Positions 12,469 through 62,610 of a stretch of DNA of 64,000 nucleotides are shown piece by piece. Source of the stretch: a bacterium (GTDB lineage: Bacteria > Patescibacteriota > Minisyncoccia > Phycocordibacterales > CAIZLB01). The stretch spans positions 13,211-77,210 of the forward strand of contig JAIXXV010000032.1 in assembly GCA_027490575.1 (NCBI GenBank), given 5' to 3'. Within the stretch, counting starts at the first letter, position 1, and every line of letters starts with the position of its first letter. The notes beneath the pieces were generated by a model. It did not search any database and was not told the origin of the DNA. It saw nothing but the letters and a program-made list of their open reading frames with translations. Position numbers and translations under genes: made by a program.

Positions 12469-13832
12469 ACCTCCAACTTCCTCGCAACCCATTTAGTCAA
12501 AGGCGGTTGTATCACCAGAGTCATAATTATCACCCACATACCTATTGAGATAAGCATTTCAGGGTTACCAATATCGTATTTTGTCAAAAGACCACTGTAT
12601 GCAACTTGCACAAGAAGTACTGCTGGGATAACGCCAGTCTCTCGGACCCATGACATGAAGAGAAGCTCGCGAGTGTTAAGATCAATCTTCTTTGAAAAGA
12701 AACCGAGTGATAGAAATACTGAGGCAGGACGCACGATGAACATAAAGACAAGTCCGGCGAGTATTCCAAACCAAGCGTATTGTAGTAGCATTTGCACATT
12801 GACCAATGCTCCTAGGAGTATAAAGATACTTGGCTTTGCAATCCCCTCCACCAGCTGATTGAAAAATGTTTCTGTCTTGTGCACTTTTTCGTTCAATACA
12901 ACTAGAAGCCCTGCGATGAATGATGCTAAGTAACCACTTCCGCCAAACAGTACCGCAAATGCATATGCCATAATAGGGATAGCGATGAAGAAACCGATGT
13001 CGGCGTGGCACTCCGCACGCATTACCCTTTGTCTAACAAAAAATCGGATTGCAAAGAATCCGATAATACCAACTATTGACCCTACTACTAGCTCTTTTGA
13101 TAGGAAAATCATTGATTCCATAGAGACTAGTGCGCTAATACCTTGTGACATGTGCGTAAAAGCCCCTGCTCTTTCTACATACGTGATAAATGCCAATGTG
13201 ACCAAAGTACCAACCACGTCCGTCAATGCACTTTCTGAAACCAAGATGTCTTTGATACGGTCTTTCTTGAGCTTAAGCTCTTTGAACACAGGGATGATGG
13301 CTGCTGGATCAGTCGATGCAAGTATTGCCCCCAAAAGTAGTGCTAGCGACACGGACATTGTCATACCTGTCACTGTGCCGAGGACCGATAGACCTTGTGC
13401 CATAAAGAGAGTAGATGCCACAAGTCCGATGAAAGATAGTAGTACGGTAGGTAAAACTATTTTTCTAAATGATGAAAACGATATCTCCAAGCCTCCACCA
13501 AAAAGTATATATACCGCTGATATAGTAACTATCATGTTTAGAGCTGCGCTGTTTTCTATAAGTGGTTCCAACAAGTTGTGCATACTTAAACCTATAAACA
13601 AGGCAACTAGAAACGATGGAAATATTGTCCCCCTAGAGAGCGAGTGACAGATGGTACCCAGAAGAAACATTCCTCCTATCAAAAACAGTGGGGTTATACC
13701 CCCTACATGATCCACAGGAATCATTTCCGAATACTGTACAAACAATGCATTGAATATTGCAAAAACCGTAACACTGGTCAAAAGTATAAATGATGATGAA
13801 TGTCTCTTAAGCTTGCTTAGTTTGGCTATCAT
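12459..13832 (-). CDS. cation:proton antiporter (CPA1/NhaP-type Na+/H+ exchanger)
   Basis: 457 aa, 10-12 TM segments; ILASTDPAA motif (TDP signature of CPA1). Confidence 0.7.
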   Translation of the reverse strand: MIAKLSKLKRHSSSFILLTSVTVFAIFNALFVQYSEMIPVDHVGGITPLFLIGGMFLLGTICHSLSRGTIFPSFLVALFIGLSMHNLLEPLIENSAALNMIVTISAVYILFGGGLEISFSSFRKIVLPTVLLSFIGLVASTLFMAQGLSVLGTVTGMTMSVSLALLLGAILASTDPAAIIPVFKELKLKKDRIKDILVSESALTDVVGTLVTLAFITYVERAGAFTHMSQGISALVSMESMIFLSKELVVGSIVGIIGFFAIRFFVRQRVMRAECHADIGFFIAIPIMAYAFAVLFGGSGYLASFIAGLLVVLNEKVHKTETFFNQLVEGIAKPSIFILLGALVNVQMLLQYAWFGILAGLVFMFIVRPASVFLSLGFFSKKIDLNTRELLFMSWVRETGVIPAVLLVQVAYSGLLTKYDIGNPEMLISIGMWVIIMTLVIQPPLTKWVARKLEVSN

Positions 13833-14024
13833 ATTGGTGATTAATTTTTAATATATCTTTTCTAAAAAATCAAAAAACCACATGGCGCGCGGCTTTTGTA
13901 TCTGAGGAGAAAATGATCGATGAGCTGATTTGAGATCAGACCACCAACTTTCTCAAACTGAGTTCTAAACCTTTTAGTTACATCAGTACTCAAGTCGTGG
14001 AGGCTATAATTATATTGATTCTTG

Positions 14025-14042
14025 TGGGCGGTAGAGGATTCG
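14025..14042 (-). repeat. 18-nt duplicate of the tRNA-Val 3' end (tRNA fragment / att-like repeat)
   Basis: TGGGCGGTAGAGGATTCG is identical to 14181-14198 (the 3' end of tRNA-Val on the minus strand), then diverges. Confidence 0.55.
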
Positions 14043-14180
14043 GTCCTTACAGGACCAGTACAGGTTTCCTATTTTCTCAAAGCTCGACAAATCTCGCTTT
14101 TCAAAAATATAGGATAACCTTTTCGAATCCTCCAGAAGCGATGCTTCTGCCGCCTATAACCGTACTTCGTACGATCACTG

Positions 14181-14253
14181 TGGGCGGTAGAGGATTCGAA
14201 CCTCTGACATCAACAACGTCAATGTTGCGCTCTACCAACTGAGCTAACCGCCC
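14181..14253 (-). tRNA. tRNA-Val (anticodon GAC)
   Basis: Manual cloverleaf: GGGCGGT/ACCGCCC acceptor, GCTC/GAGC D-stem, CAACA-TTGACGT-TGTTG anticodon arm, AGAGG-TTCGAAT-CCTCT T-arm; 73 nt, no encoded CCA. Confidence 0.85.
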
Positions 14254-14361
14254 ATGCCCTGTTTTTGTCTAGTTTTACAGCTTTATATCTTACCTTTCAG
14301 TAAATATATCGACTAGTAATTTTTAACAAAACGCATTTTTTAGTGTAGCAAATACACGTAA

Positions 14362-15195
14362 TTATTTCAACATAAATTGACACATTATTGCCATATGATC
14401 TGAAACATTACCTACAACCTTTGCTTTGTCTAGGTAAAACCTATTTCCTGAGAACATACAGTCTACCACTAGCATTAACCCGCCTGCTCTATGCAAGGTT
14501 TTATCAATTGTGGTTTTACAATCTTTTGGAACATTGTCGTTAAGGATACTGGACAAGCTATCGTACAGACACTTCCCTCTTGGTGAATTCAGGTCACCGC
14601 AAAGTATCGTGTTTTCTAAATCTTTTTTTGATAAAAAGTTTATAAGATTTTCATAATGACGCATTTGTTCACCTGTAACCCCCCCTTTACCAGACCAAGT
14701 AAAGTGAATATTTGCTATTGAAAAAGACGTTTCCCTTTCCTTCCCATTTACTACAAAATTTGCCAAAGTTAAATTTCTTCGATAAGTTTCCGAGTGTTTA
14801 TTTTTGTCATGGTAAACAATCTCTTTATCTGGAAAATCTCCATAGGAAAAAATCTCACTTGAGCCTATTTTGTGTTTTGAAAGTATCAATGTCCCTGATT
14901 TTGAGAAATCATACTTTTCTAAAGCACCTTTTTCTTCATTTACTACTATTTCATAATGATTCATCAGCTTACTATAAAGAAAATCACCTGTAGGCGTCAT
15001 GGTCTTTTCCTTGTAAGGTAAAATGGTTGCCGGCGAAAATAAATGGTGATGCATATTCAAGGAATGAGAGAGGTAATCTATATCTTTCTCAAAGACCTCC
15101 TGTAGACAAGCAACGTCTGGGTTTTGCTCTTTTATGAAAGGTATAAATTTGTCAAAATGCTTATCCAGTTCAATGTTTAATGTTATAACTTTCAT
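14362..15195 (-). CDS. endonuclease/exonuclease/phosphatase (EEP) family protein
   Basis: DVACLQEV, GDLN and SDHMAI motifs characteristic of the EEP (DNase I-like) fold. Confidence 0.7.
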   Translation of the reverse strand: MKVITLNIELDKHFDKFIPFIKEQNPDVACLQEVFEKDIDYLSHSLNMHHHLFSPATILPYKEKTMTPTGDFLYSKLMNHYEIVVNEEKGALEKYDFSKSGTLILSKHKIGSSEIFSYGDFPDKEIVYHDKNKHSETYRRNLTLANFVVNGKERETSFSIANIHFTWSGKGGVTGEQMRHYENLINFLSKKDLENTILCGDLNSPRGKCLYDSLSSILNDNVPKDCKTTIDKTLHRAGGLMLVVDCMFSGNRFYLDKAKVVGNVSDHMAIMCQFMLK

Positions 15196-15322
15196 AGATT
15201 TATGATTACTAATATATCATAAGTCAGAAAATCACCTTACCTTTATATATTTTGCTTTTTTTAACAAAAATGTTATATTGTTGACCACGCAATGGCTGTA
15301 TAGTACAGCTTGAGCAAACCAT

Positions 15323-15371
15323 GGCCCTATCGTCTAACCTGTTTAGAATATAGCGGACACGGCCTTTTCAA
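15323..15371 (+). pseudogene. degenerate partial copy of the tRNA-Glu 5' half
   Basis: GGCCCTATCGTCTAAC...GGACACGGCCTTTTCAA matches the acceptor/D/anticodon arms of the downstream tRNA-Glu but has a 16-nt insertion in the D-loop and lacks the T-arm. Confidence 0.5.
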
Positions 15372-15403
15372 TGAAAAGGTAGGTTTGGTAAAAAACAATA
15401 TAT

Positions 15404-15475
15404 GGCCCTATCGTCTAACGGTTAGGACACGGCCTTTTCAAGGCTGTAATCGGAGTTCGATTCTCCGTAGGGTCA
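15404..15475 (+). tRNA. tRNA-Glu (anticodon UUC)
   Basis: Manual cloverleaf: GGCCCTA/TAGGGTC acceptor, CGGCC-TTTTCAA-GGCTG anticodon arm, CGGAG-TTCGATT-CTCCG T-arm; 72 nt. Confidence 0.85.
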
Positions 15476-15684
15476 CAGATTTTAACGAACAAAGTGAGTA
15501 TAAAATCGTGATGCAGGGGTACTTCATATTTTCGAGCTTGCAATGAAAATATGTTAGTACCAGCTGCGCACAGATTTTAACGAAACAGTTCTCAAGCATA
15601 TAAATCTTTTTTTGCTTACATAGCTATCACAATCATAAGTAAAAAGGGGTTGAAAATCAGATTATTTGATATACTTACTTCTAT

Positions 15685-16128
15685 ATGGAAACCAAAAAAG
15701 TAGGAGCTGGTTTTGGAATAATGATACTCCGAGACAATAAAGTATTACTCGGACAAAGACACATTGACCCCGAGAAAGCTGACAGTGAATTAAACGGCGA
15801 AGGCACGTGGACTATGCCCGGAGGAAAACTAGAGTTTGGAGAAAGCTTCGAGGAAGGAGCAGTGAGAGAAGTTCAAGAAGAGACGGGTATAGATTTAGAC
15901 ATAAAGGATGTAAAGGTTATTAGTCTTTCCAATGATATGGTTCCGACTGCTCATTTTGTAACTATCGGTCTTTTGTGTTTAAACTGCCCACAAGATCCGA
16001 AAGTAATGGAACCTGACGAAATAACCCAGTGGAACTGGTTTGACTTAGAAAATCTTCCTGAACCACTTTTCGAGCCAAGTAGAAAGATTATTCAAAATTA
16101 TTTGAGCGGTGTGTTTTATAATGGTTAA
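15685..16128 (+). CDS. NUDIX hydrolase
   Basis: Nudix box GGKLEFGESFEEGAVREVQEETGI (Gx5Ex7REUxEExGU). Confidence 0.8.
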   Translation: METKKVGAGFGIMILRDNKVLLGQRHIDPEKADSELNGEGTWTMPGGKLEFGESFEEGAVREVQEETGIDLDIKDVKVISLSNDMVPTAHFVTIGLLCLNCPQDPKVMEPDEITQWNWFDLENLPEPLFEPSRKIIQNYLSGVFYNG

Positions 16129-16218
16129 TGTTGACTACATCTTTTTATAATTGTAACATCTTCGGCAGAACCCAGAGTTCCAAATACAAACCTCAAAACA
16201 TGAAAGGAAACGACATAG

Positions 16219-16860
16219 ATGAACATTTCAGAAGAGATTTCAATTAGGGTCAACAGAAACTTGACAGATCGCCTTGGCGGCCTGGAAAGCCAACTGGTTG
16301 AAACAATGAGTAAGGAGAGGGTAAAAATGGCCAAAAGGCAAATGCTTTCAAAGTACACAGCTGCCATTGCAGTCAATTTCACCGATTGGATAGGAAAAAC
16401 CTACCCGTGGACAAGAAGCCTTGAAGCTCAGTTGGCGCTCATGGATCTTCTTAACCAAGAGCAGACTAATGATCGAATCGGGGCGCTGCACAGGCTTGCT
16501 AAACAATGCCAAGCAATGCCACAGGAAGAGCATTTTGCCGTCGTTGAAGAAAAAGTTTCTGCTGTTCGCCACCTACTCACGAACATCAAGACAGTAGGTA
16601 TTAGTGGTTTAGCCGTAATAGCAATACTTGAAAATGCATCTGAGGTTTTTATGCCCACACTTGAAAGTTGGGCTATATCACTTGGTTGCATCGACTTTGA
16701 GTATTTTGAAGTGAAGGAAAAGCCAAACGGCAAACATGCTAGTTCCCTGCTAAATGGTCTAGAAATCGAATTGTCTCGGAATTATCGCAACTTGGACCAA
16801 CTTCTCAGTACTGCAGAAGCTCACAGTCTCAAGCTATTATCCAGCATCTTCAGTATCTAG
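16219..16860 (+). CDS. hypothetical protein (GC-richer ORF)
   Basis: 213-aa ORF followed by a terminator at 16893-16927; no family recognised. Confidence 0.45.
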   Translation: MNISEEISIRVNRNLTDRLGGLESQLVETMSKERVKMAKRQMLSKYTAAIAVNFTDWIGKTYPWTRSLEAQLALMDLLNQEQTNDRIGALHRLAKQCQAMPQEEHFAVVEEKVSAVRHLLTNIKTVGISGLAVIAILENASEVFMPTLESWAISLGCIDFEYFEVKEKPNGKHASSLLNGLEIELSRNYRNLDQLLSTAEAHSLKLLSSIFSI

Positions 16861-16892
16861 ATTGTGGCCAAAGTCCTGTTTATCGTACCCCT

Positions 16893-16927
16893 ACCCTGCC
16901 ACTTCACGGTGCGCAGGGCTTTTATAT
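16893..16927 (+). terminator. rho-independent terminator
   Basis: CCCTGC...GCAGGG hairpin followed by CTTTTATAT. Confidence 0.5.
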
Positions 16928-16943
16928 AAAGAAGCAACATGCA

Positions 16944-17237
16944 TTAGGCCTTGGACATATACTCAGTATTAAATATTTCTAGCATTTCAGACTCAGTAAA
17001 ATCTTCTTGTTTGTAACAATCATCGTGGTTCTCATTTGCGAAAGCCAGAGTATATTTTCCATCATCTTGTTTTTTCACACCATACAAACTTATAGCACCG
17101 TACTCTATTGAGTGAATGATTTGAGACATAGTACCAATCAACTCTTCCTTATCCTCCTGATACTCATGATCATGAAAATGATACATAAGCAGCGCTTTGT
17201 CGATTGGTGGGTTTTCACCTTGGTGTGGATTTTCCAT
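16944..17237 (-). CDS. hypothetical small acidic protein
   Basis: 97-aa ORF; His/Asp/Glu-rich; no family recognised. Confidence 0.35.
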   Translation of the reverse strand: MENPHQGENPPIDKALLMYHFHDHEYQEDKEELIGTMSQIIHSIEYGAISLYGVKKQDDGKYTLAFANENHDDCYKQEDFTESEMLEIFNTEYMSKA

Positions 17238-17296
17238 TTGTTTTGATTATAACATTATCTGACAACTACTACACGTTAACATATATCTGCTACTTG

Positions 17297-17974
17297 CTAA
17301 CACCCTCCCCACAACCCAACTCCCGCACTCTTTGCAACTCCCTCAGCCGTCCTAAACACATTTTGCATCTTTGTATCTGGCTTATATGCCTTAGCACGAG
17401 CGTAACCACCCTCAACTAGTTTTAGGTTTACAAAACCGACATCAACGTACTCACCTGTCACATTATCTTTTTCGACTACATAAACATAACGAAGCAGTCT
17501 TCCAAAACGGTCCTTGTCGCTGACATCTTTTTCTAACCTAACTACTTTTCCAAAAACCAACTCTTCGTTTTTCAACTTCGCATTCAGACCATAGCACTGT
17601 ACCTCCTCAGTCGGATGCGCCGTCTCAGGTGCATCGATACCGATATATCGAACCTTCCACTCACCTTCTCTGTTTCGTACCTCTACAGTGTCACCATCGA
17701 CAATCCTAGTCACTAGATATTGCCCTGCTTGAAGTTGATTTAAAGTATTTTGAACAAATGATTCGTCCAAGACGCGCACATTTGGAGTATCTACTTCTGT
17801 GCCTTTATTATTCTCCGCTTCAGAATCATTAAGCTGTGTTGATTGATTTAGAGATTTATTTCCAATATTAAAATTTTCAGAAAGTATGTTGTTCGCAAGG
17901 ATGTCATAACCAAAAAACACCAAAAGTAAGGCGACTATCAAATACAGTATTTTTTTGGTGTTTTTAGAGCTCAT
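17297..17974 (-). CDS. thermonuclease (staphylococcal/micrococcal nuclease, SNase) homolog, membrane-anchored/secreted
   Basis: VTRIVDGDTVEV...VRYIGIDAPET...GRLLRYVYV SNase core motifs; N-terminal hydrophobic anchor MSSKNTKKILYLIVALLLVFF; start chosen at the internal ATG. Confidence 0.75.
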   Translation of the reverse strand: MSSKNTKKILYLIVALLLVFFGYDILANNILSENFNIGNKSLNQSTQLNDSEAENNKGTEVDTPNVRVLDESFVQNTLNQLQAGQYLVTRIVDGDTVEVRNREGEWKVRYIGIDAPETAHPTEEVQCYGLNAKLKNEELVFGKVVRLEKDVSDKDRFGRLLRYVYVVEKDNVTGEYVDVGFVNLKLVEGGYARAKAYKPDTKMQNVFRTAEGVAKSAGVGLWGGC

Positions 17975-18086
17975 TATGTTTAGTGAAGGTATTATATTAT
18001 AATCAGACCAGAACATGAAACTCGGTCAGGTAAAAAACAGTTAAAAAAACCGACATATTAGTACAAATCATTAACTACACAAAATC

Positions 18087-18443
18087 ATGCCACTACCTAT
18101 GCCAAATGCTGTTCCTGAACCAGGATACTACTATCACTACAAACATGACGCAGAGGGTTCTGTAGACAACTACGCCTACTATGTTGTTGGAGTCGGATTC
18201 CACACTGAGGATGATCCACGTGAAGGAGAGGCTCATTTCTTGATTTACCAACCTCTTTATCCTGCCGCTGTCTATACAGCATCTACAGAACTTGGACTAC
18301 CTTGCTTTGACGCTCGGCCACTGAGTATGTGGATGGAATCTGTTGAGTACAAAGGTCAAACATTGCCAAGATTTAGCAAAATCACTGACCCAGCAGTGCT
18401 GTCACAGTTGGAAGCAAAGCGTGCGGAGATGTATGGTGTTTAG
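18087..18443 (+). CDS. DUF1653 domain protein
   Basis: GYYYHYK...YYVVGVGFHTE...LIYQPLY...RPLSMWMESVE...LPRF matches the DUF1653 pattern. Confidence 0.6.
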   Translation: MPLPMPNAVPEPGYYYHYKHDAEGSVDNYAYYVVGVGFHTEDDPREGEAHFLIYQPLYPAAVYTASTELGLPCFDARPLSMWMESVEYKGQTLPRFSKITDPAVLSQLEAKRAEMYGV

Positions 18444-18487
18444 TTGTATTGAATGATTAAGAAGCTCTATTATTAAATATTGAAACG

Positions 18488-18976
18488 ATGACACCAGAAA
18501 TAAAAAGCAGGAAAGATTACCTCAAAAAGCTCAACTATTTAAACAAGGAAAAAATCTGCGGATTTTGTAATATTAAAAAAGAATTTATCATTAAAGAGTT
18601 CAAAAATTGGATATGGGTATTTAGTGAGTTTCCGTACTGGAAGTACAATACGATTATCATCTCAAAAAAGCATAAGACCAATTTTTCAGAACTAACATCT
18701 AGAGAAGTATCTGAATTAAAAGATATTTTTGTATTTGCTGAAAATAGTTACAAAAAAGCAGATATAGTAAAAGACGATTCTACTTGGGGAATGGATATAT
18801 TGTGGAGACAAAGAGCAAAGACCAATGGTTACGAGACAAGGTCACATATTCATATACATTTATGCCCACAACCCGAAGGCAGGTTTAATCCTATTCTAGA
18901 CAACAAATCACATAAAATAAAGCCAGAACTACTAATTAGCGCTGCAAAAACATTGAGAACAAAGCAGATAAAGTAG
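18488..18976 (+). CDS. HIT-family (histidine triad) hydrolase-like protein
   Basis: N-terminal C-x2-C (CGFC) and C-terminal histidine triad SHIHIHL; AT-rich codon usage. Confidence 0.55.
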   Translation: MTPEIKSRKDYLKKLNYLNKEKICGFCNIKKEFIIKEFKNWIWVFSEFPYWKYNTIIISKKHKTNFSELTSREVSELKDIFVFAENSYKKADIVKDDSTWGMDILWRQRAKTNGYETRSHIHIHLCPQPEGRFNPILDNKSHKIKPELLISAAKTLRTKQIK

Positions 18977-18978
18977 AC

Positions 18979-19509
18979 CTAAACCAAACTCCCCCACCTC
19001 TCCACATGACACGTATACCCACCTGGATTCTTCTGTAGGTAGTCTTGGTGATAATCCTCAGCTGACCAAAACTTTTTAAATGGTTCTAGTGTAGTGACGA
19101 CTGGATCTTTCCAAAGACCACTTTCATTTACAATCTTTATCATTTTTTCAGCATCTTGTTTTTCTTCTTCATCTTGATAGAAAATTGCGGATCTGTATGA
19201 AGAACCGATATCATTTCCCTGACGATTGACCGTAGTTGGATTATGAATTCTGAAGAAATAATCAAGTATTTTTAAATAACTCGTAACTGCTGGGTCGTAT
19301 GTTATTTCCATTGCCTCAGCGTGCGATTCTGCAGAATCGTGTCGCGCAATGTCCATTGAAGCGCGACCGTGACGCTCGTATGTAGGATTATCATTTTGTC
19401 CACCACTATAACCTACCTCAGAATCAATCACACCTTCTTGCTTTCTAAATAGCTCTTCCATTCCCCAGAAACATCCACCTGCAATATATGCTTTTTTATA
19501 GTTGTTCAT
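18979..19509 (-). CDS. msrA: peptide methionine sulfoxide reductase MsrA
   Basis: GGCFWG active-site motif at the N-terminus; family length. Confidence 0.9.
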
Positions 19510-19545
19510 AATTACTAATTGTTAACTACCAATTGATAATTGCTA
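19510..19545. repeat. 7-nt periodic array abutting the msrA start codon
   Basis: Minus strand reads CAATTAT CAATTGG TAGTTAA CAATTAG TAATT-ATG; fills the entire msrB-msrA intergenic spacer; no Shine-Dalgarno. Confidence 0.55.
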
Positions 19546-19947
19546 TTCCTCCTTTTTAAAATCCAAAGAAATACTATTGATACAGTACCTATCACACACT
19601 CCGCCACTTGCTTTCACGGGACCATCTGGAAAAACATGACCTAGGTGTGCTCCGCATTTTTTACACAAAACCTCAGTCCTTCTCATACCATGCGTATCAT
19701 CTGGCACCAAAGTCACAGCTTCTACATCAGCAGGGTCTGTAAATGATGGCCATCCCGAACCACTGTCAAACTTTGTATTCGAAGAAAAAAGCTCAGTACC
19801 GCATACGGCACAGTGATACATACCGTTACCTTTCTCATTTACATGTTTCCCTACAAAAGGCGCCTCGGTTCCTTTTTCAAATGCGACTTTGTATAGTTCC
19901 GGATTTTTTTCTTTTAATTCCTCATGATTAGTGTTGGTGTTATTCAT
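19543..19947 (-). CDS. msrB: peptide methionine sulfoxide reductase MsrB
   Basis: Two CxxC zinc motifs (CAVCGTELF; [12 protein letters not shown]) and the SelR core. Confidence 0.9.
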
Positions 19948-20050
19948 GTACTAATTATACTCCTATTGATCGAAATTGTTATTAAGTAATAAATATGGCA
20001 TTATGTTTTATCTAAATAAATTGGCTTTTGCCGTAGCCTGTAAGCACCAA

Positions 20051-21379
20051 ATGACTAAAAACAAGGATAAATTGAGAATATTATCAATAGAAACCAGCTG
20101 TGACGAGACAGCAGTTTCAATAATAGACGCTGAAGGAGGTGTTGATACACCTGTTTTCAAAGTTCTTGGAAATGCACTCTACTCACAAATAGACTTACAT
20201 GCCGAATACGGTGGTGTATTCCCGATGCTTGCCAAAAGAGAGCATGGTAAAAATCTGGTTCCACTACTTGATCAAGCAGTTGATATTGCTTTAAAATCAG
20301 CTGACATAACTGACAGTACTGCACAATCCACAGAATCACAAAACTCATTCACAAACCTCACCGAGCAAACTACTCTCATCACAAGCATCCTAGAGAAAGA
20401 GCAAGGTCTATCAGAGACTCTACTAAAATACCTTGAAGAAAATATAAATAAATTATCAAGTTTAAATATAGATTATATTGCGGTAACAAAAGGACCAGGG
20501 CTTGAACCCGCTCTTTGGGTAGGTATTAGTTTTGCAAAAGCACTTTCTATAGCTGTGCAAAAACCATTGATACCTATAAATCACATGGAAGGTCATATTG
20601 TTTCTGTTTTGACTGACGATACTCTGAACGGAGCCCCTAGCGACTCGGTAGAGCACAGAGTAAACTTCCCCGCTCTCGCATTACTAATCTCTGGTGGCCA
20701 CACCGAGCTAGTAGAATGCAAAAACTGGAATGAATACAAGATAATCGGACACACTGTGGATGATGCTATAGGTGAAGCCTTCGACAAAGTAGCTAGACTC
20801 ATCGGTATACCATATCCCGGTGGACCAGTCATATCAAAGCTTGCAAAGGAAAGTCGAGATCAAGACACAACTGCTGAATACGAAAGAACTCATGGAAACA
20901 GACCATGGTCACTCCCTCGACCAATGATACATAGTAAGGATTTAAACTTTTCGTTTTCAGGTATCAAGACCGCTGTTCTATACGCTGTTAGGGAAAAAAC
21001 AGCACAATCAAAGGGTGCAGAACTATCGGACACTGACAAAAAAACATTAGCAGAAGAATTTGAAAATGCTGTAACTGAAGTTATTATCAAAAAAACTGAA
21101 AGGGCCATTGAACAAACTCACTCCGAAACACTCATAGTGGGTGGCGGTGTTATTGCAAATACATACATACGAAATGAACTGAAAAAAATGATTTCAGAAA
21201 AGTTCTCACATGTATCACTTTTGATACCGACCCTTGATATGACAACAGATAACTCAGTCATGATTGGAGTTGCTGGGTATTTGAAAGCTATTTCTAAACC
21301 TGAAAACATCATCCTGCCTGGTGATATAGAAAAACTCACTGCACTTGGTGCCAAAGGTAGTCTTGGACTAGAAGAATAA
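20051..21379 (+). CDS. tsaD: tRNA N6-adenosine threonylcarbamoyltransferase TsaD (Kae1/YgjD family) with insertions
   Basis: LRILSIETSCDETAVSI N-terminus, metal-binding His pair region; start taken at MTKNKDKL (the ORF track begins 25 codons earlier at 19976). Confidence 0.8.
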   Translation: MTKNKDKLRILSIETSCDETAVSIIDAEGGVDTPVFKVLGNALYSQIDLHAEYGGVFPMLAKREHGKNLVPLLDQAVDIALKSADITDSTAQSTESQNSFTNLTEQTTLITSILEKEQGLSETLLKYLEENINKLSSLNIDYIAVTKGPGLEPALWVGISFAKALSIAVQKPLIPINHMEGHIVSVLTDDTLNGAPSDSVEHRVNFPALALLISGGHTELVECKNWNEYKIIGHTVDDAIGEAFDKVARLIGIPYPGGPVISKLAKESRDQDTTAEYERTHGNRPWSLPRPMIHSKDLNFSFSGIKTAVLYAVREKTAQSKGAELSDTDKKTLAEEFENAVTEVIIKKTERAIEQTHSETLIVGGGVIANTYIRNELKKMISEKFSHVSLLIPTLDMTTDNSVMIGVAGYLKAISKPENIILPGDIEKLTALGAKGSLGLEE

Positions 21380-58645: not shown

Positions 58646-59173
58646 CTAAACAATACTTAGGATGTGATTAAAGTGCTTTTCTGAAACTGGTTGTATGGAA
58701 AGTCTGCTACCTTTTTGACAAACAATCATATCTTTCAACACAGGATCCATTTTTAAATGTTTTAAACTTATCGGCTTGTTAAACTTTTTGACGAACTTAA
58801 AATCAACCAGTACCCAAATTGGCACAAAATTATTTCCATCTTTTTCTGCTTGCTTTTTAAGCTTAAGTGACCTGGGATCAAAGTGCTCATCTTTTGCATC
58901 AAGAGCACTTGGGTCACCGTACGGTGAAGATGCAACCTTTGCCAAGCCATATATACCGGTGGGGTTATCTATATATTTTGAGTTTGAATGATAAAACAAA
59001 GCCAAATCACCAATCTTCATGCTATCCCTCATAAAGTTTCTTGCTTGAAAATTTCTAACACCTGTCCACGGAGAAACACTTTCTCTTTTTAGGTCGTCTA
59101 TTGAAAAGCAATCTGCCTCTGACTTTATCAGCCAAAATGATTTTGCAGGGGTTTTACTCATCTTTTCTACCAT
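58646..59173 (-). CDS. EVE (PUA-like) domain protein
   Basis: FWLIKSEADCFSIDDL...WTGVRNFQARNFMRDSMKIGDLALFYHS matches the EVE domain. Confidence 0.7.
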   Translation of the reverse strand: MVEKMSKTPAKSFWLIKSEADCFSIDDLKRESVSPWTGVRNFQARNFMRDSMKIGDLALFYHSNSKYIDNPTGIYGLAKVASSPYGDPSALDAKDEHFDPRSLKLKKQAEKDGNNFVPIWVLVDFKFVKKFNKPISLKHLKMDPVLKDMIVCQKGSRLSIQPVSEKHFNHILSIV

Positions 59174-59188
59174 TCTTTATCGTCCTTA

Positions 59189-60058
59189 TTATTTAGTTAA
59201 TAGGGTAAATTCAGTAACTGAGATGTTTGATCCGCTTACCGCATAGCTTACCGCTGCATTATAAGTAGAACGTCCGTCCGTGTATGTAACCACAGCTCTG
59301 TTTGTACCATCGAATCTAATACTTGCTATTGTGAATGGAGAAGCAGATTTTACTGGAGACAAAGAATTAATGTTTTGCTTTATAAATGCATTAAACAACT
59401 CTCTTGCTGTAGGCGCTCTTGATGGTTGATTTGTAGTAGTGTCAACCGGTCTGTTCTGAATAGGATTAGCAGTTACAGCACTAGGGAAAGCTGATCTGTT
59501 ATTTTCATCAACAACAACTTCAGCTTCAGGTATAGTACTCATTGAATAAAAATAATATCCTACTCCAGCTAATGCAAGAATGACGAATATAGAAATAATA
59601 GTCCACCATACCTTGGCCATACTGTGAGGAGTGGTACTAACATGGGTATTAGTATGAGTAACTGGAGTGAATGCAGAAACTGAAGGCGTGGAATTTGAAA
59701 AAGTAGTACTTGTTACTGAAGGCTGTGGCTTGAGAGCCGAATAGCTAGATGCAGGTTTTGGTGAGTCTTGAACAGGTGTTTGAACTGGTGATTGAACAGA
59801 TGTAACTGGTATATGTTGAGGTGCAACACGAGAAGAAGATGTATTCATACCGATAAATGCAGGTGTTGTTTCTACAGTCGCTTTGTCATTGTGATCTGCC
59901 ACAGGCATAGCACCTGGTAAAACCACATCGCTCTTAGTAACTGGTTCGTGAGAAAACCCAGTAGATTGCCCTTGGTTCTGTATAGTATTAATTTGACCCA
60001 GACCAGTTGTATTACCAGCTAAATTTCCGTCTTGTTTAGGTATTAAATTATCATTCAT
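59189..60058 (-). CDS. hypothetical single-pass membrane protein, Ser/Thr/Pro/Val-rich
   Basis: 289-aa ORF; central TM helix WWTIISIFVILALAGVGYYF; low-complexity N-terminus. Confidence 0.4.
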   Translation of the reverse strand: MNDNLIPKQDGNLAGNTTGLGQINTIQNQGQSTGFSHEPVTKSDVVLPGAMPVADHNDKATVETTPAFIGMNTSSSRVAPQHIPVTSVQSPVQTPVQDSPKPASSYSALKPQPSVTSTTFSNSTPSVSAFTPVTHTNTHVSTTPHSMAKVWWTIISIFVILALAGVGYYFYSMSTIPEAEVVVDENNRSAFPSAVTANPIQNRPVDTTTNQPSRAPTARELFNAFIKQNINSLSPVKSASPFTIASIRFDGTNRAVVTYTDGRSTYNAAVSYAVSGSNISVTEFTLLTK

Positions 60059-60080
60059 GATACGACAATTGTAACATAAA

Positions 60081-60656
60081 CTATAATTTACGTATAACCG
60101 CTTTAACTACAGCAGCAATTTTGAGGTCATACTCAGGGTATATATTTTTAAATTTTTTATTTGCCGGTTCAAGGTATATCTGACCTTTTTTATCTCTCCT
60201 AAAATACTTCATCGTCCAACCTCCGTCGACTTCTGCGATTACAATATCTCCCACCTTTGCATTTTCAGTTCTCTCAACAAGAACAAGGTCACCTTCAGCT
60301 ATGTGAGCTTCTATCATTGATTCCCCTTTCACTTCGAGCATATACGTTGAGCCTTTTGTACCTTCCAAAAGGAGCTCGTCTATAGAAGTAGAATCAAGTA
60401 CATCTTCTTCTGCCACTGTTGGCATACCAGCTTCTACTAGTCCAAGTAAAGGAATCTCATTTGAAAGCTTTTGGGGTGTAAGCTTGCCCCTCGAGTCCTT
60501 GTTGAATACACCTTCCTCTACAAGTTTGTTAATGAGTTTATAGACAGCATTTTTGGACTTGAATCCAAGCATATCCATAATCTCATTATACCCAGGCACA
60601 CGCCTATTGGTCTTATAGAAATTAAGTATTTTTTGTTTGTAATCTTGGTAAGTCAT
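60081..60656 (-). CDS. lexA: LexA repressor
   Basis: N-terminal winged HTH; S24 peptidase domain with an Ala-Gly-like cleavage region (VEAGMPT), GESM catalytic Ser and a downstream Lys. Confidence 0.85.
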   Translation of the reverse strand: MTYQDYKQKILNFYKTNRRVPGYNEIMDMLGFKSKNAVYKLINKLVEEGVFNKDSRGKLTPQKLSNEIPLLGLVEAGMPTVAEEDVLDSTSIDELLLEGTKGSTYMLEVKGESMIEAHIAEGDLVLVERTENAKVGDIVIAEVDGGWTMKYFRRDKKGQIYLEPANKKFKNIYPEYDLKIAAVVKAVIRKL

Positions 60657-60662
60657 TTTTTG

Positions 60663-60755
60663 CAGTTATCAGGTGGTGGTTAGCAGATATCAGGTATCAG
60701 ATGACAGATATCAGGTATCAGGTATCAGGTATCAGATGACAGATATCAGGTATCC
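60663..60755 (+). repeat. 7-nt periodic CAGNNNN array (13 units) in the lexA leader
   Basis: CAGTTAT CAGGTGG TGGTTAG CAGATAT CAGGTAT CAGATGA CAGATAT CAGGTAT CAGGTAT CAGGTAT CAGATGA CAGATAT CAGGTAT, beginning 7 nt upstream of the lexA ATG. Confidence 0.7.
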
Positions 60756-61037
60756 ATTAAATGCTAATGCTTAGATGCTGGAGTCTATTAAAACATGAAT
60801 GAGGCGAGTGAGAATGTTCTAGCTAATGAAGCCTCACTTTCAAGTCTTCTCAATTGTAGCATGAGGTTCTTATGCTTTCGAGATTCCTTTTCATATGATT
60901 CTCCTTTTATGATTTTAAAATCTATTCTTTTGTTGATTGAGTTAAGCTCTCTTCTTATTGCAAACATAATTGTCATTTTTCTCATGGTATTTATTTTGTT
61001 ATTTTTTAATGTTCTTTGTCTTTCCTTGTATGTTTAT

Positions 61038-61066
61038 ATAATAGGTGAACTATAGTTCACTGTCAA
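61038..61066 (-). promoter_or_regulatory. consensus promoter TTGACA-17-TATTAT (minus strand) with a GAAC-N4-GTTC LexA/Cheo-type box in the spacer
   Basis: Minus strand TTTGACA-GTGAACTATAGTTCACC-TATTAT; the 16-bp perfect palindrome GTGAACTATAGTTCAC (61045-61060) fits the Gram-positive SOS box GAAC-N4-GTTC. Confidence 0.55.
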
Positions 61067-61100
61067 ACATTTAGTATAAAAATACTGTGGATAAGTCTTA

Positions 61101-61147
61101 AACAGATAACAGTTGGTAATTATCAGGTGACAGTTAGCAGTTAGGTG
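61101..61147 (+). repeat. 7-nt periodic CAGNNNN array
   Basis: CAGATAA CAGTTGG TAATTAT CAGGTGA CAGTTAG CAGTTAG overlapping the helicase stop codon region. Confidence 0.55.
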
Positions 61148-62610
61148 CTTATCAAAAAATCAACAACTCTCTGGTCTACTTGTATATCTCTTCTCGTTAT
61201 AGGTTTGGTGAGCTGAATCCCCTCGAGACTTCTAACGCGACTTAGCGCCACATAAGCTTGTCCATGTGCAAAAGTCCCCTTTCCAAAATCTATGATTGCA
61301 TTATCGAACGTTTTACCTTGACTCTTGTGTATAGTAACTGCCCAAGCAAGTTTTACCGGTATTTGTATGTACTTTCCAACAACCTCAGAAGAAACTCTGT
61401 TTTGCTTTGAGTCAAATTCATATCTAACTGATTCCCAACTTTCACTTTCAACTTCCTCGGTCTTGCCATTACGAAGTTGTACATTGATGGAAGTTGAGTT
61501 TAGCTTTTTTACAATACCAAGATCTCCATTGACCCATCTGCCCATAGGATCATTTCTAAGCATCATGACTTGTGCGCCAACTTTCAGCACCAGAGCTTCA
61601 GGCGCTGGTGTAGTTTTTCTATCAAAAGCTCCTTGTACATGACCTTTGTATGTTTTAGCGGCACCATATATTTCAGTTAGCTTTTTGTTATTGATTACCT
61701 CAGCTGATGCATTGGTAGAAACTAGATATATGGCATCACTTGGCATTTTTTTCTTTTTATTTAAACTGCTTTTGCCTGCATTTTTTGAATGAGCGCCAGA
61801 CTTAGTTTTTCCACCAATCCCCTCACTACTATCATTGTCCATATCAATCACTAGCTCATAATCACCTCCGAATTGATAGTCAGACTCTGATTGAAATCCA
61901 CCTGAATCTGACACGGAGTCTTGATTGAAATTTTGTGAAAAATCTAGACAGCACACTGAATTGATTTTATAAAGATCATTTTCATCCATACGACCTGTAC
62001 GAATCCTATCAAGGATAGAGACGAACTCAGTATCACTTTGTCTATAAACTTCTGTAAGCTCAGCTATCTGGAAATTGCCCTTGGGATATGACTTTGAATC
62101 AAAAAAGTATGGGCTCTGATAATGATCTATGAAGACGTACTGTTCATGTGGAGCAACTACCGGAGGCAACTGAAACATGTCTCCAATAGCCACCATTTGT
62201 ACACCACCAAAAAACTCACCAGGCTTTGGACCGTTGAGTCTAAGGAATCTCTCAACACAATCAAAAAGATCTGCACGGACCATAGATATTTCATCTATTA
62301 CAAGTGTGTCTAGCTTTTTGTAAAGCTTAGATAAGGTCTCATCTGAGATAATGCTTATATCTCTATCTATCACACCTATCTTAAACTTAAAGAAGCTGTG
62401 TATGGTCTGACCTTTGATATTTAGTGCTGCTATGCCTGTGGGTGCAACTACGGCTATGTTTTTCTTGGTGGTATCTCGAAAATGTTGCAGCAAAGTAGAT
62501 TTACCAGTACCAGCTCTACCAGTAATGAATATGTTTTGGCTAGAATTTTCAAGCAAATCTAATATATCTTTTGACTCGTCAGATAATTTCATATCTGAAT
62601 AATACTCCAA
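61141..62610 (-). CDS. PIF1/RecD-like superfamily 1 DNA helicase
   Basis: Walker A ITGRAGTGKSTLL, Walker B LVIDEISMV, C-terminal AVTIHKSQG...AYVALSRV (motifs V/VI of the Pif1/RecD/TraA clade); Asp/Ser-rich insertion. Confidence 0.8.
   Translation of the reverse strand: MEYYSDMKLSDESKDILDLLENSSQNIFITGRAGTGKSTLLQHFRDTTKKNIAVVAPTGIAALNIKGQTIHSFFKFKIGVIDRDISIISDETLSKLYKKLDTLVIDEISMVRADLFDCVERFLRLNGPKPGEFFGGVQMVAIGDMFQLPPVVAPHEQYVFIDHYQSPYFFDSKSYPKGNFQIAELTEVYRQSDTEFVSILDRIRTGRMDENDLYKINSVCCLDFSQNFNQDSVSDSGGFQSESDYQFGGDYELVIDMDNDSSEGIGGKTKSGAHSKNAGKSSLNKKKKMPSDAIYLVSTNASAEVINNKKLTEIYGAAKTYKGHVQGAFDRKTTPAPEALVLKVGAQVMMLRNDPMGRWVNGDLGIVKKLNSTSINVQLRNGKTEEVESESWESVRYEFDSKQNRVSSEVVGKYIQIPVKLAWAVTIHKSQGKTFDNAIIDFGKGTFAHGQAYVALSRVRSLEGIQLTKPITRRDIQVDQRVVDFLIST

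Follow-up and report, generated by a model that had tools for sequence, protein, structure and literature searches.

The window, by which the whole stretch of 64,000 nucleotides is meant, carries an intact tRNA-Val(GAC) gene on its reverse strand, and a partial copy of the 3' end of this gene lies downstream of it in the same orientation. The 18-mer TGGGCGGTAGAGGATTCG, recognized in the preliminary description as a direct repeat of the tRNA-Val 3' end, occurs exactly twice on the forward strand, at 14025-14042 and 14181-14198. Further copies with up to three mismatches are absent from the whole 64 kb, and none is expected from 100 shuffles. The exact repeat extends to 20 nt (TGTGGGCGGTAGAGGATTCG, 14023-14042 and 14179-14198), and the starts of its two copies are 156 nt apart. 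Its second copy is the 3' end of tRNA-Val(GAC) according to both ARAGORN and Rfam. Read on the tRNA strand, the repeat is CGAATCCTCTACCGCCCA followed by CA, and it runs from C56 of the T-loop to the discriminator A73 plus two bases. The 136-bp insert enclosed by the repeats contains no credible ORF, and its fold z-scores are -5.2 on the forward strand and -7.0 on the tRNA-sense strand. The features of the locus are given below, where A1 and R1 denote an alignment and a covariance model built from 19 copies of the element.

14181-14253, reverse strand: intact tRNA-Val(GAC) (ARAGORN; Rfam RF00005, 71.1 bits), identical in the relative L006.
14179-14198, reverse strand: proximal repeat, tRNA-Val C56 to A73 plus CA (CGAATCCTCTACCGCCCACA), from the repeat search and the alignment with L006.
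14156-14178, reverse strand: spacer hairpin GTGATCGTACGAAGTACGGTTAT, from folds; most other copies have an A-tract/T-tract terminator hairpin here, which is often bidirectional.
14150-14155, reverse strand: anti-acceptor segment AGGCGG, complement of the tRNA-Val acceptor 3' strand CCGCC; 6 of 8 positions fit the local tRNA.
14133-14149, reverse strand: hairpin A, CAGAAGC ATC GCTTCTG, from the fold; all 6 pairs covary in the family.
14124-14132, reverse strand: anti-T segment GAGGATTCG, complement of the T-loop/T-stem 3' strand, positions 56-64; 9 of 10 positions fit the local tRNA.
Between the anti-T segment and hairpin B, reverse strand: junction AAAA.
14063-14119, reverse strand: hairpin B, with conserved arms GGTTnTCCnATATTTT and AAAATnGGAAACC, two conserved bulges and a variable loop (A1).
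14057-14062, reverse strand: conserved linker TGTACT (A1).
14042-14056, reverse strand: hairpin C, GGTCC TGTAA GGACC, whose last C is C56 of the distal repeat (A1); among other copies the stem covaries and the loop is constant.
14023-14042, reverse strand: distal repeat, the partial tRNA-Val 3' end (exact repeat); the sequence next to it is the one directly after tRNA-Val in L006.
14023-14159, reverse strand: whole element as matched by R1, 106.7 bits, E = 1.4e-26.
14043-14198 (equivalently 14023-14178), reverse strand: the 156-bp stretch missing in L006 (global alignment).
15477-15568, forward strand: tentative second copy, in a decayed state, located 3' of tRNA-Glu(TTC), with a 16-nt repeat CACAGATTTTAACGAA (15474-15489 and 15569-15584) and a resemblance to the consensus by eye (GGGTACTTCATATTTTCGAGC).

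Judged by its NhaP homologues, the source of the window is a Patescibacteria (CPR) bacterium of the Paceibacteria/Parcubacteria type. The sequence of the window is identical to contigs of the MAG GCA_027484805.1 and of the Logan run SRR30952586. A scan of species genomes yielded no relatives of the EEP-family protein; NhaP relatives were therefore used as anchors, and the contigs of the relatives were retrieved via their NhaP proteins. These proteins share 91% identity with that of the window in L006, 76% in L007, 70% in L008/L009, and 69% in L010/L011, and the order tRNA-Glu, tRNA-Val, NhaP is conserved across all these relatives. In L006, the closest one, the tRNA-Val is the same as in the window and is directly followed by CAAGAATCAATATAAC..., which in the window succeeds the partial copy. 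In a global alignment, the two differ by one clean indel of 156 bp, in which 136 bp are unique and the remainder is one copy of the repeat; the flanks, compared over the next 190 nt, share about 93% identity. The comparison with related genomes proposed in the preliminary description has thereby provided an empty-site allele in L006, and tRNA-Val is also without insert in L007, L008, and L010. The insertion of 136 bp at tRNA-Val is precise and polymorphic, and the empty-site allele of the relatives excludes an origin from an ancient duplication by decay in place. In L007 and L010, a homologous element is situated 3' of tRNA-Glu, not of tRNA-Val.

Among the 54 ORFs of the window, no integrase, transposase, or reverse transcriptase is detected with Pfam, and the earlier statement that the window lacks an integrase holds at this level. 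The ORFs serve core functions, e.g., FtsA/Z, aminoacyl-tRNA synthetases, DnaE, GyrB, and RNase III. Several neighbouring genes had been proposed as remnant cargo of an integrated element. NhaP is not enclosed by the repeats and keeps its synteny in relatives that lack the insert, and is therefore not cargo; the EEP nuclease, on the 5' side of tRNA-Val, is not enclosed by them either and represents an indel of its own. Beyond tRNA-Glu, the genes do constitute a variable islet, which, however, is not bounded by a second copy of the tRNA-Glu 3' end. A blastn search of 13800-15700 against phage records matched the tRNAs alone.

The core of the element is found at many other tRNA genes. A pattern of 20 bases from this core (GGAAACCNNNACTGGTCCNNNNNGGACC), for which about one chance match is expected by our own arithmetic, was searched in 185,579 species genomes and retrieved 19 loci, exclusively in MAGs of Patescibacteria, several of which carry two or three copies. 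The same pattern has no match in 2.9 million viral contigs. Among the loci retrieved, R1 recognizes 24 copies at 68-136 bits, and three more in groundwater metagenomes bring the number to 27. The element measures 135-217 nt, and the MAGs carry two to four copies each in the loci retrieved. Every copy lies directly 3' of its target gene and in the orientation of that gene. The targets comprise 12 tRNA species (Val-GAC, Glu-TTC, Glu-CTC, Arg-GCG, Arg-CCG, Leu-TAG, Lys-CTT, Pro-TGG, Trp-CCA, Ile-GAT, Ser-GGA, and Tyr-GTA), to which tmRNA is added. The copies thus constitute a structured, multi-copy family that is restricted to the CPR and tied to the 3' ends of tRNA and tmRNA genes. Six intact copies (L014, L021, L023, L028, L032, and the tRNA-Trp copy of L034) are bounded by an exact 19-nt repeat; since the duplicated segment consists of these 19 nt, from C56 to N73 plus C, the tRNA is left intact. 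In one subfamily (L015, L018, and L025), the distal "repeat" contains an extra small hairpin that is missing from the tRNA.

Conservation is limited to the right-hand core, the left ends vary among copies, and terminal inverted repeats are absent across them. The layout is nevertheless common to every copy, with a first hairpin, the anti-acceptor segment, hairpin A, the anti-T segment, the bulged hairpin B, and hairpin C with its TGTAA loop. A type 2 core, ending in ...GTGAC|CGA, is present in L034 (tRNA-Trp) and L012 (tmRNA), and a third type in L022 (tRNA-Ser); both have the common layout. The cores of types 2 and 3 are unrelated in sequence, and the recurrent feature is this layout beyond any one sequence. 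Some loci have several units in a stack at a single tRNA or tmRNA, separated by small genes of the same orientation, namely a PEMT/ICMT-like methyltransferase (L015), a pterin dehydratase (L022), and a 99-aa ORF (L012). Two tandem units are found in L025. The 90 ORFs flanking other copies did not reveal a recurrent recombinase, transposase, or reverse transcriptase family among the 25 most frequent of their 102 families. Within the viral contigs and the copy flanks (the latter again for the 25 most frequent of 102 families), no related autonomous element that shares the att-proximal sequences was found.

A metagenome scan with GGAGGATTCGAAARGGTTNTCC, aimed at the donor lineage of the Val copy of the window, gave copies at tRNA-Tyr and tRNA-Trp and none at tRNA-Val; two of its four matches are chance ones in GC-rich coding DNA. 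The second copy listed above for the window, at tRNA-Glu, was undetected by nhmmer and by the covariance model, and is therefore tentative. In the same region, at 15321-15385, a pseudo 5' half of tRNA-Glu is common to the window and L006. Known RNA families do not account for the element. With Rfam 15 at the gathering threshold, two tRNAs of the window pass and nothing else, and a search of 13800-14400 down to E = 10 returned nothing relevant. Resemblances seen by eye to tmRNA, split or permuted tRNA, the hammerhead or another small ribozyme, and a T-box were rejected; the conserved junctions do not fit, and ARAGORN and Rfam found nothing.

The alignment A1 supports a structure of five helices, in which 85.6% of the cells are paired, compared with 74.3 ± 0.9% in shuffled alignments; none of 500 shuffles scored as high. 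The covariation score is 0.367, against 0.154 for the shuffles, and in a control with slid partners 33-52% of the cells are paired. In hairpin A, all six pairs present double-sided changes. Hairpin B is paired in 96.6% of its cells, seven of its pairs have changed on both sides, and its two bulges are conserved. Hairpin C was fixed by the search pattern, and the stems of divergent copies read GGTTC/GAACC, GCTCC/GGAGC, GACCA/TGGTC, and CGAAGC/GCTTCG around a constant TGTAA loop. Wobble pairs are rare, 407 of 430 cells being Watson-Crick; the wobble cells of hairpins A and B (11 G-T versus 6 A-C) do not identify the transcribed strand. The tRNA-sense strand folds better in 17 of the 19 copies and is thus weakly favoured by fold energy.

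The anti-T and anti-acceptor segments correspond to the tRNA beside which each copy resides. The first matches its own tRNA at 9.5 of 10 positions on average and other tRNAs at 6.8; for the second, the values are 6.2 and 2.8 of 8. The total match to the own tRNA was not reached in any of 20,000 permutations, in a test whose acceptor and T segments were delimited by eye. These segments also explain the degenerate T-arm-like stretch (GGAGGATTCGAAAAGG) reported between the repeats by the preliminary description. The stretch is real (14133-14118, reverse strand), but it is an inverted complement of the T-loop/T-stem 3' strand and not a third direct copy. In the window copy the repeats are perfect (20/20) and the complements imperfect (9/10 and 6/8); the exact complement of its internal segments is CGAATCCTCC..GCCGCCT-A. 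The mismatches concern the pairs 49:65, 7:66, and 1:72, at which tRNA-Val orthologues or isoacceptors are often different. The combination of perfect repeats and imperfect complements indicates that the complements were inherited from a donor copy. Both repeats of the window correspond to the local type, which is the outcome expected of a fill-in duplication. Copying of the complements from the target during insertion was discarded as an explanation, since mismatches are present in the youngest copy, that of the window.

Older copies have a different aspect. In L013, L024, L026, and L027 the distal repeat has decayed and the complements still match the live tRNA at 10 of 10 positions; between L014 and L024, the complements track compensatory changes in the T-stem of their own tRNA-Glu. 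Several copies form a near-perfect palindrome of tRNA tail, terminator, and complement, which attains 27+27 nt in L026 and 26+26 nt in L034. Either selection or template-switch correction of quasi-palindromes, a known mutational process, would keep the complements matched. Intactness of the distal repeat and perfection of the anti-acceptor segment also seem to be inversely related, in small numbers and with L034 as an exception.

Regarding expression, a promoter-like site is found upstream of tRNA-Val (14370-14342), and the sole terminator-like site, at 13897-13873, lies beyond the element. This placement makes co-transcription likely, and the element of the window is probably transcribed together with tRNA-Val. 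The predicted fold of tRNA-Val plus the element is very stable (RNAfold, -100.9 kcal/mol, z = -7.5). RNAfold prefers a form in which the distal repeat closes the tRNA body, the element becomes an insertion in the T-loop, and the proximal repeat pairs with the complements. The tRNA would fold first during transcription, and this T-loop-insertion fold should therefore be seen as a thermodynamic curiosity and not as an argument for splicing.

The 136-bp insert of the window is best explained as a non-autonomous insertion element that targets tRNA 3' ends and belongs to a Patescibacteria-specific family, a reading to which we assign a probability of about two in three. The preliminary description had taken the direct repeat as a signature of integration or excision. 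An insertion at a tRNA gene is indeed delimited by the repeat, but this insertion is no scar or remnant of a lost island, being 136 bp of non-coding DNA in a layout that recurs elsewhere. A classical att scar would imply that an island or prophage with a tyrosine integrase, once inserted in tRNA-Val, lost its interior and left attL and attR 136 bp apart, as in a CIME. Such an origin would agree with a direct repeat that extends from the T-loop as far as the end of the tRNA, as the identity block of integrases directed at tRNA genes classically does, with the 136-190 bp between repeats, which approximate the size of an attP, with the tandem units and small cargo genes at L012, L015, L022, and L025, and with the variable islet in the 3' flank of tRNA-Glu. 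It is nonetheless improbable. Classical integrases are specific for one tRNA, whereas here one core resides at 12 tRNA species and tmRNA, 13 targets in all. No integrase is encoded in the window or beside any of about 25 copies (25 most frequent of 102 flank families), and the core is unmatched in the 2.9 million viral contigs. Independent deletions would not yield an identical architecture some 25 times; the recurrence of an architecture of 135-190 nt at 12 tRNA species and tmRNA argues that the insert of the window is not what remained after deletion of an island. Moreover, attP sites are not known to contain an internal inverted complement of their att core. Far more remote is an ancient local duplication of tRNA-Val, or of its 3' half, that decayed to a pseudo-tRNA. 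Partial tRNA copies do occur nearby, such as the pseudo 5' half of tRNA-Glu at 15321-15385. Against this origin, the repeat is identical at 20 of 20 positions while the intervening DNA is unrelated to tRNA-Val, with just 20 nt derived from the tRNA in direct orientation; the closest relative, L006, has a clean empty site, and the interior belongs to a family present at unrelated tRNAs.

The main alternative, a host non-coding RNA module linked to tRNA genes, co-transcribed with them, and duplicated to many tRNA loci, is possible although unlikely, and it would be compatible with the element reading. In such a module, the complements might pair with the tRNA-type 3' end to form a tRNA-like closed structure processed by RNase P, RNase Z, or RNase III; alternatively, they might regulate the maturation or termination of the tRNA 3' end. 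The compensatory changes in hairpins A, B, and C would suit an RNA, as would the better folding of the tRNA-sense strand in 17 of 19 copies, the placement of promoter and terminator in the window, which makes co-transcription likely, and the stability of the whole-transcript fold (-100.9 kcal/mol, z = -7.5). Hairpins B and C and a perfect anti-T segment are retained in old copies (L024, L013, L026, and L027) even after decay of the distal repeat, which counts against mobile DNA and looks like purifying selection on an RNA or DNA structure useful to the host rather than a purely selfish element. Two further observations go against mobility: the left end lacks a conserved sequence and terminal inverted repeats are absent, which is unusual for a transposon, and the copies at tRNA-Glu(TTC) in diverged genomes look orthologous, with a common hairpin A and different loops in hairpin B. 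A host RNA, however, has to face the variable presence of the module among close relatives and the decayed copy at tRNA-Glu in the window, from which the module appears dispensable. Its spread to 12 tRNA species and tmRNA, each with a 19-nt duplication, would still require an insertion mechanism. A terminator hairpin separates tRNA and element in most copies, wobble pairs are very few (407 of 430 cells are Watson-Crick), and there is no match in Rfam.

If the insert is a non-autonomous element, as favoured here, an enzyme encoded elsewhere would insert it. The internal complements might serve to recognize the targeted strand, or might fold so as to mimic the target, and the repeat would then arise by strand exchange or staggered cleavage at the two limits of the 19-nt segment. 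After insertion, the distal repeat would decay, and the complement would be kept matched to the live tRNA through selection or template-switch correction. The extra hairpin in the distal repeat of L015, L018, and L025 is not explained by a simple fill-in duplication of the target. As no enzyme was identified, mobility is deduced from presence/absence variation and from the multi-copy, multi-target spread alone. The chemistry might be that of a recombinase, an HUH-type enzyme, a Cas1-like enzyme, or something new.

A bolder and rather doubtful proposal is that the elements are the recombination sites of an undescribed CPR insertion system, guide-directed and integron-like or bridge-like, that acts at the 3' ends of tRNA and tmRNA genes. 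The split internal complement of 18 nt would read the target strand, either as RNA or as folded single-stranded DNA, and if the paired segment were cut at both its ends, the constant length of the duplication, 19 nt, would be accounted for. Small co-oriented genes downstream of the tRNA, such as those of L012, L015, and L022, might be cassettes carried by the units, and the specificity could be reprogrammed by altering two short segments.

Patescibacteria have very small genomes and are thought to be poor in mobile DNA. In these bacteria, a compact element has settled at the 3' end of tmRNA and of no fewer than 12 tRNA genes, and it leaves the genes undamaged. Its design has no earlier description in the literature searched and combines a conserved core of three hairpins with an internal complement matched to the target. 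If this complement directs insertion, it would represent a naturally reprogrammable rule for target choice; if the module is instead a host RNA, it would define a new class of structured RNAs linked to tRNAs. In addition, the partial tRNA copies and long inverted repeats of these elements can mislead tRNA annotation, callers of att sites and islands, and the assembly of CPR MAGs.

Several known systems share part of these features. Group I introns of Patescibacteria tRNA genes are inserted at position 35/36 and possess a catalytic core (PMC13011429); a tmRNA T-loop intron is cited in the same paper. They have in common with the element the phylum, the class of host gene, and the T-loop insertion topology found by RNAfold. 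The element, however, is too small for such an intron, has no intron match in Rfam, and follows a tRNA that is complete without splicing. MITEs and REPINs, non-autonomous repeats whose mobilization occurs in trans, are also short, non-coding, multi-copy, and hairpin-forming, without an encoded enzyme, and the conserved arms and variable loop of hairpin B are reminiscent of a REPIN. The element differs from them in the absence of terminal inverted repeats, the variable left end, the strict tie to tRNA 3' ends in a single orientation, and a repeat of 19 nt defined by the target, where theirs is of 2-10 bp or absent.

Casposons and CRISPR spacer integration, which rely on integrases of the Cas1 family, produce target duplications of 14-37 bp, and casposons prefer the 3' ends of tRNA genes. 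The long target duplication and the preference for tRNA 3' ends are thus shared with casposons, but the element is 100 times smaller and has no Cas1, polymerase, or terminal inverted repeats. In IS200/IS605 elements, in the EBS/IBS pairing of group II introns, and in the bridge RNA of IS110, the target just upstream of the insertion point is complementary to an internal segment that varies with the target, as observed here. Unlike in these systems, the 18-nt complement is split by a hairpin and pairs with one strand alone, TnpA, reverse transcriptase, or IS110 recombinase is not linked to the element, and a 19-nt duplication is not known from them.

As in the element, the attP(+) of the CTX phage and the attC sites of integrons carry the target core a second time, inverted and imperfect, within some 40-90 nt of the junction, which lets one strand adopt a duplex form that mimics the target; conserved bulges in the stem are common to them as well. 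The attC-type palindrome is loosely matched by hairpin B and by the pairing between tRNA end and complement, and there is no sequence relation to attC. The arrays of units with small co-oriented genes at some loci are similar to integron cassettes. In contrast with CTX attP(+) and attC, the target is the T-loop/acceptor region of a tRNA rather than dif or attI, and most units are geneless; the arrays begin at a tRNA or tmRNA, no link to Xer or IntI was found, and no integrase family recurs in the flanks (25 most frequent of 102 families). Integrative elements that target tRNA or tmRNA genes, with their CIMEs and satellites, share insertion at the 3' end, a direct repeat from the T-loop to the end, an intact tRNA, an empty site in relatives, and stackable units. 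The element departs from them in containing no gene, in its size of 136-190 bp, in the use of at least 12 tRNA species and tmRNA by one core, in the absence of a linked integrase and of copies on viral contigs, and in the presence of the att segment as an internal inverted complement. As a kind, mobile DNA that is non-autonomous and resides at tRNA genes is known; no earlier description of elements such as these was found in full-text searches of the literature, and their architecture and target breadth are to this extent new.

The 3' flank of the window's tRNA-Glu(TTC) carries a sequence, GGGTACTTCATATTTTCGAGC...GTACCAG, that resembles a decayed version of the tRNA-Val element. A 16-nt exact repeat, CACAGATTTTAACGAA, bounds this putative copy; it takes in the tRNA's final two bases, where it starts. 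Neither nhmmer nor the covariance model matched the segment at 15474-15584. Upstream of the genuine tRNA-Glu gene, at a distance of 81 nt, is a pseudo 5' half of that tRNA with a replaced D-loop; it stops at the anticodon loop, after which follows its own inverted complement, TGAAAAGG. Only the window and its closest relative, L006, have this half.

15321-15385, + strand: tRNA-Glu pseudo 5' half, matching exactly in two blocks (18 and 17 nt)
15474-15584, + strand: putative decayed element copy with its bounding repeats, 3' of tRNA-Glu(TTC)

The tRNA-Glu 3' flank is a flexible islet. The interval from tRNA-Glu to TsaD differs in gene content in each of the relatives compared (L006, L008, and L010), and in the window it comprises NUDIX, a 213-aa ORF, SNase, DUF1653, a HIT-like gene, and MsrA. 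No bounding repeat was found around it in the window. The TsaD domain begins only at residue 146 of the 467-aa ORF, so either the protein is extended at its N terminus or its TTG start is mis-set; TsaD in the relatives measures 466-489 aa. The EEP-family gene between the two tRNAs is missing from this position in L006 and L007 and is replaced by a UPF0259 gene in L008 and L010. No close relatives of it were found in the species-genome scan.

14362-15195, - strand: EEP-family (Exo_endo_phos) gene
15600-19950: variable gene islet, tRNA-Glu 3' flank to TsaD
19976-21379, + strand: TsaD ORF, 467 aa

The spacer separating the insertion site from the antiporter gene NhaP is about 93% identical to that of L006, partially conserved in L007, and ends in a hairpin resembling a terminator (13897-13873). 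This spacer, which has no Rfam match, is a candidate leader or cis-regulator for NhaP. Elsewhere in the window, a cluster may represent a small accessory or defence-type module.

13833-14022, - strand: 190-nt spacer upstream of NhaP
58646-62610, - strand: EVE-domain protein, 289-aa ORF without assigned identity, LexA-like S24 peptidase, PIF1-like helicase

Beyond the window, one subfamily (L015, L018, and L025) has an extra small hairpin (AAGCG...) inserted after CGAT within the T-loop part of the distal 'repeat'; this hairpin is absent from the adjoining tRNA. Two additional core types share the layout of the element family, namely tRNA or tmRNA, palindromic terminator, tRNA-tail complement, core, and repeat from T-loop position C56. 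The type 2 core ends in ...GTGAC and lacks hairpin A.

L015 77-100, L018 4490-4513, and L025: distal repeats with the extra hairpin
L034 3230-3392, - strand: further core-type unit
L012 7080-7213, - strand: further core-type unit
L022 594-725, + strand: further core-type unit
L012 6470-7213, L015 1-982, L022 491-1910, and L025 5553-5853: units stacked at a single tRNA or tmRNA

Small co-oriented genes (PEMT/ICMT-like, pterin-4a-carbinolamine dehydratase, and a 99-aa membrane ORF) lie between some of the stacked units, an arrangement at one tRNA or tmRNA that resembles a cassette array.
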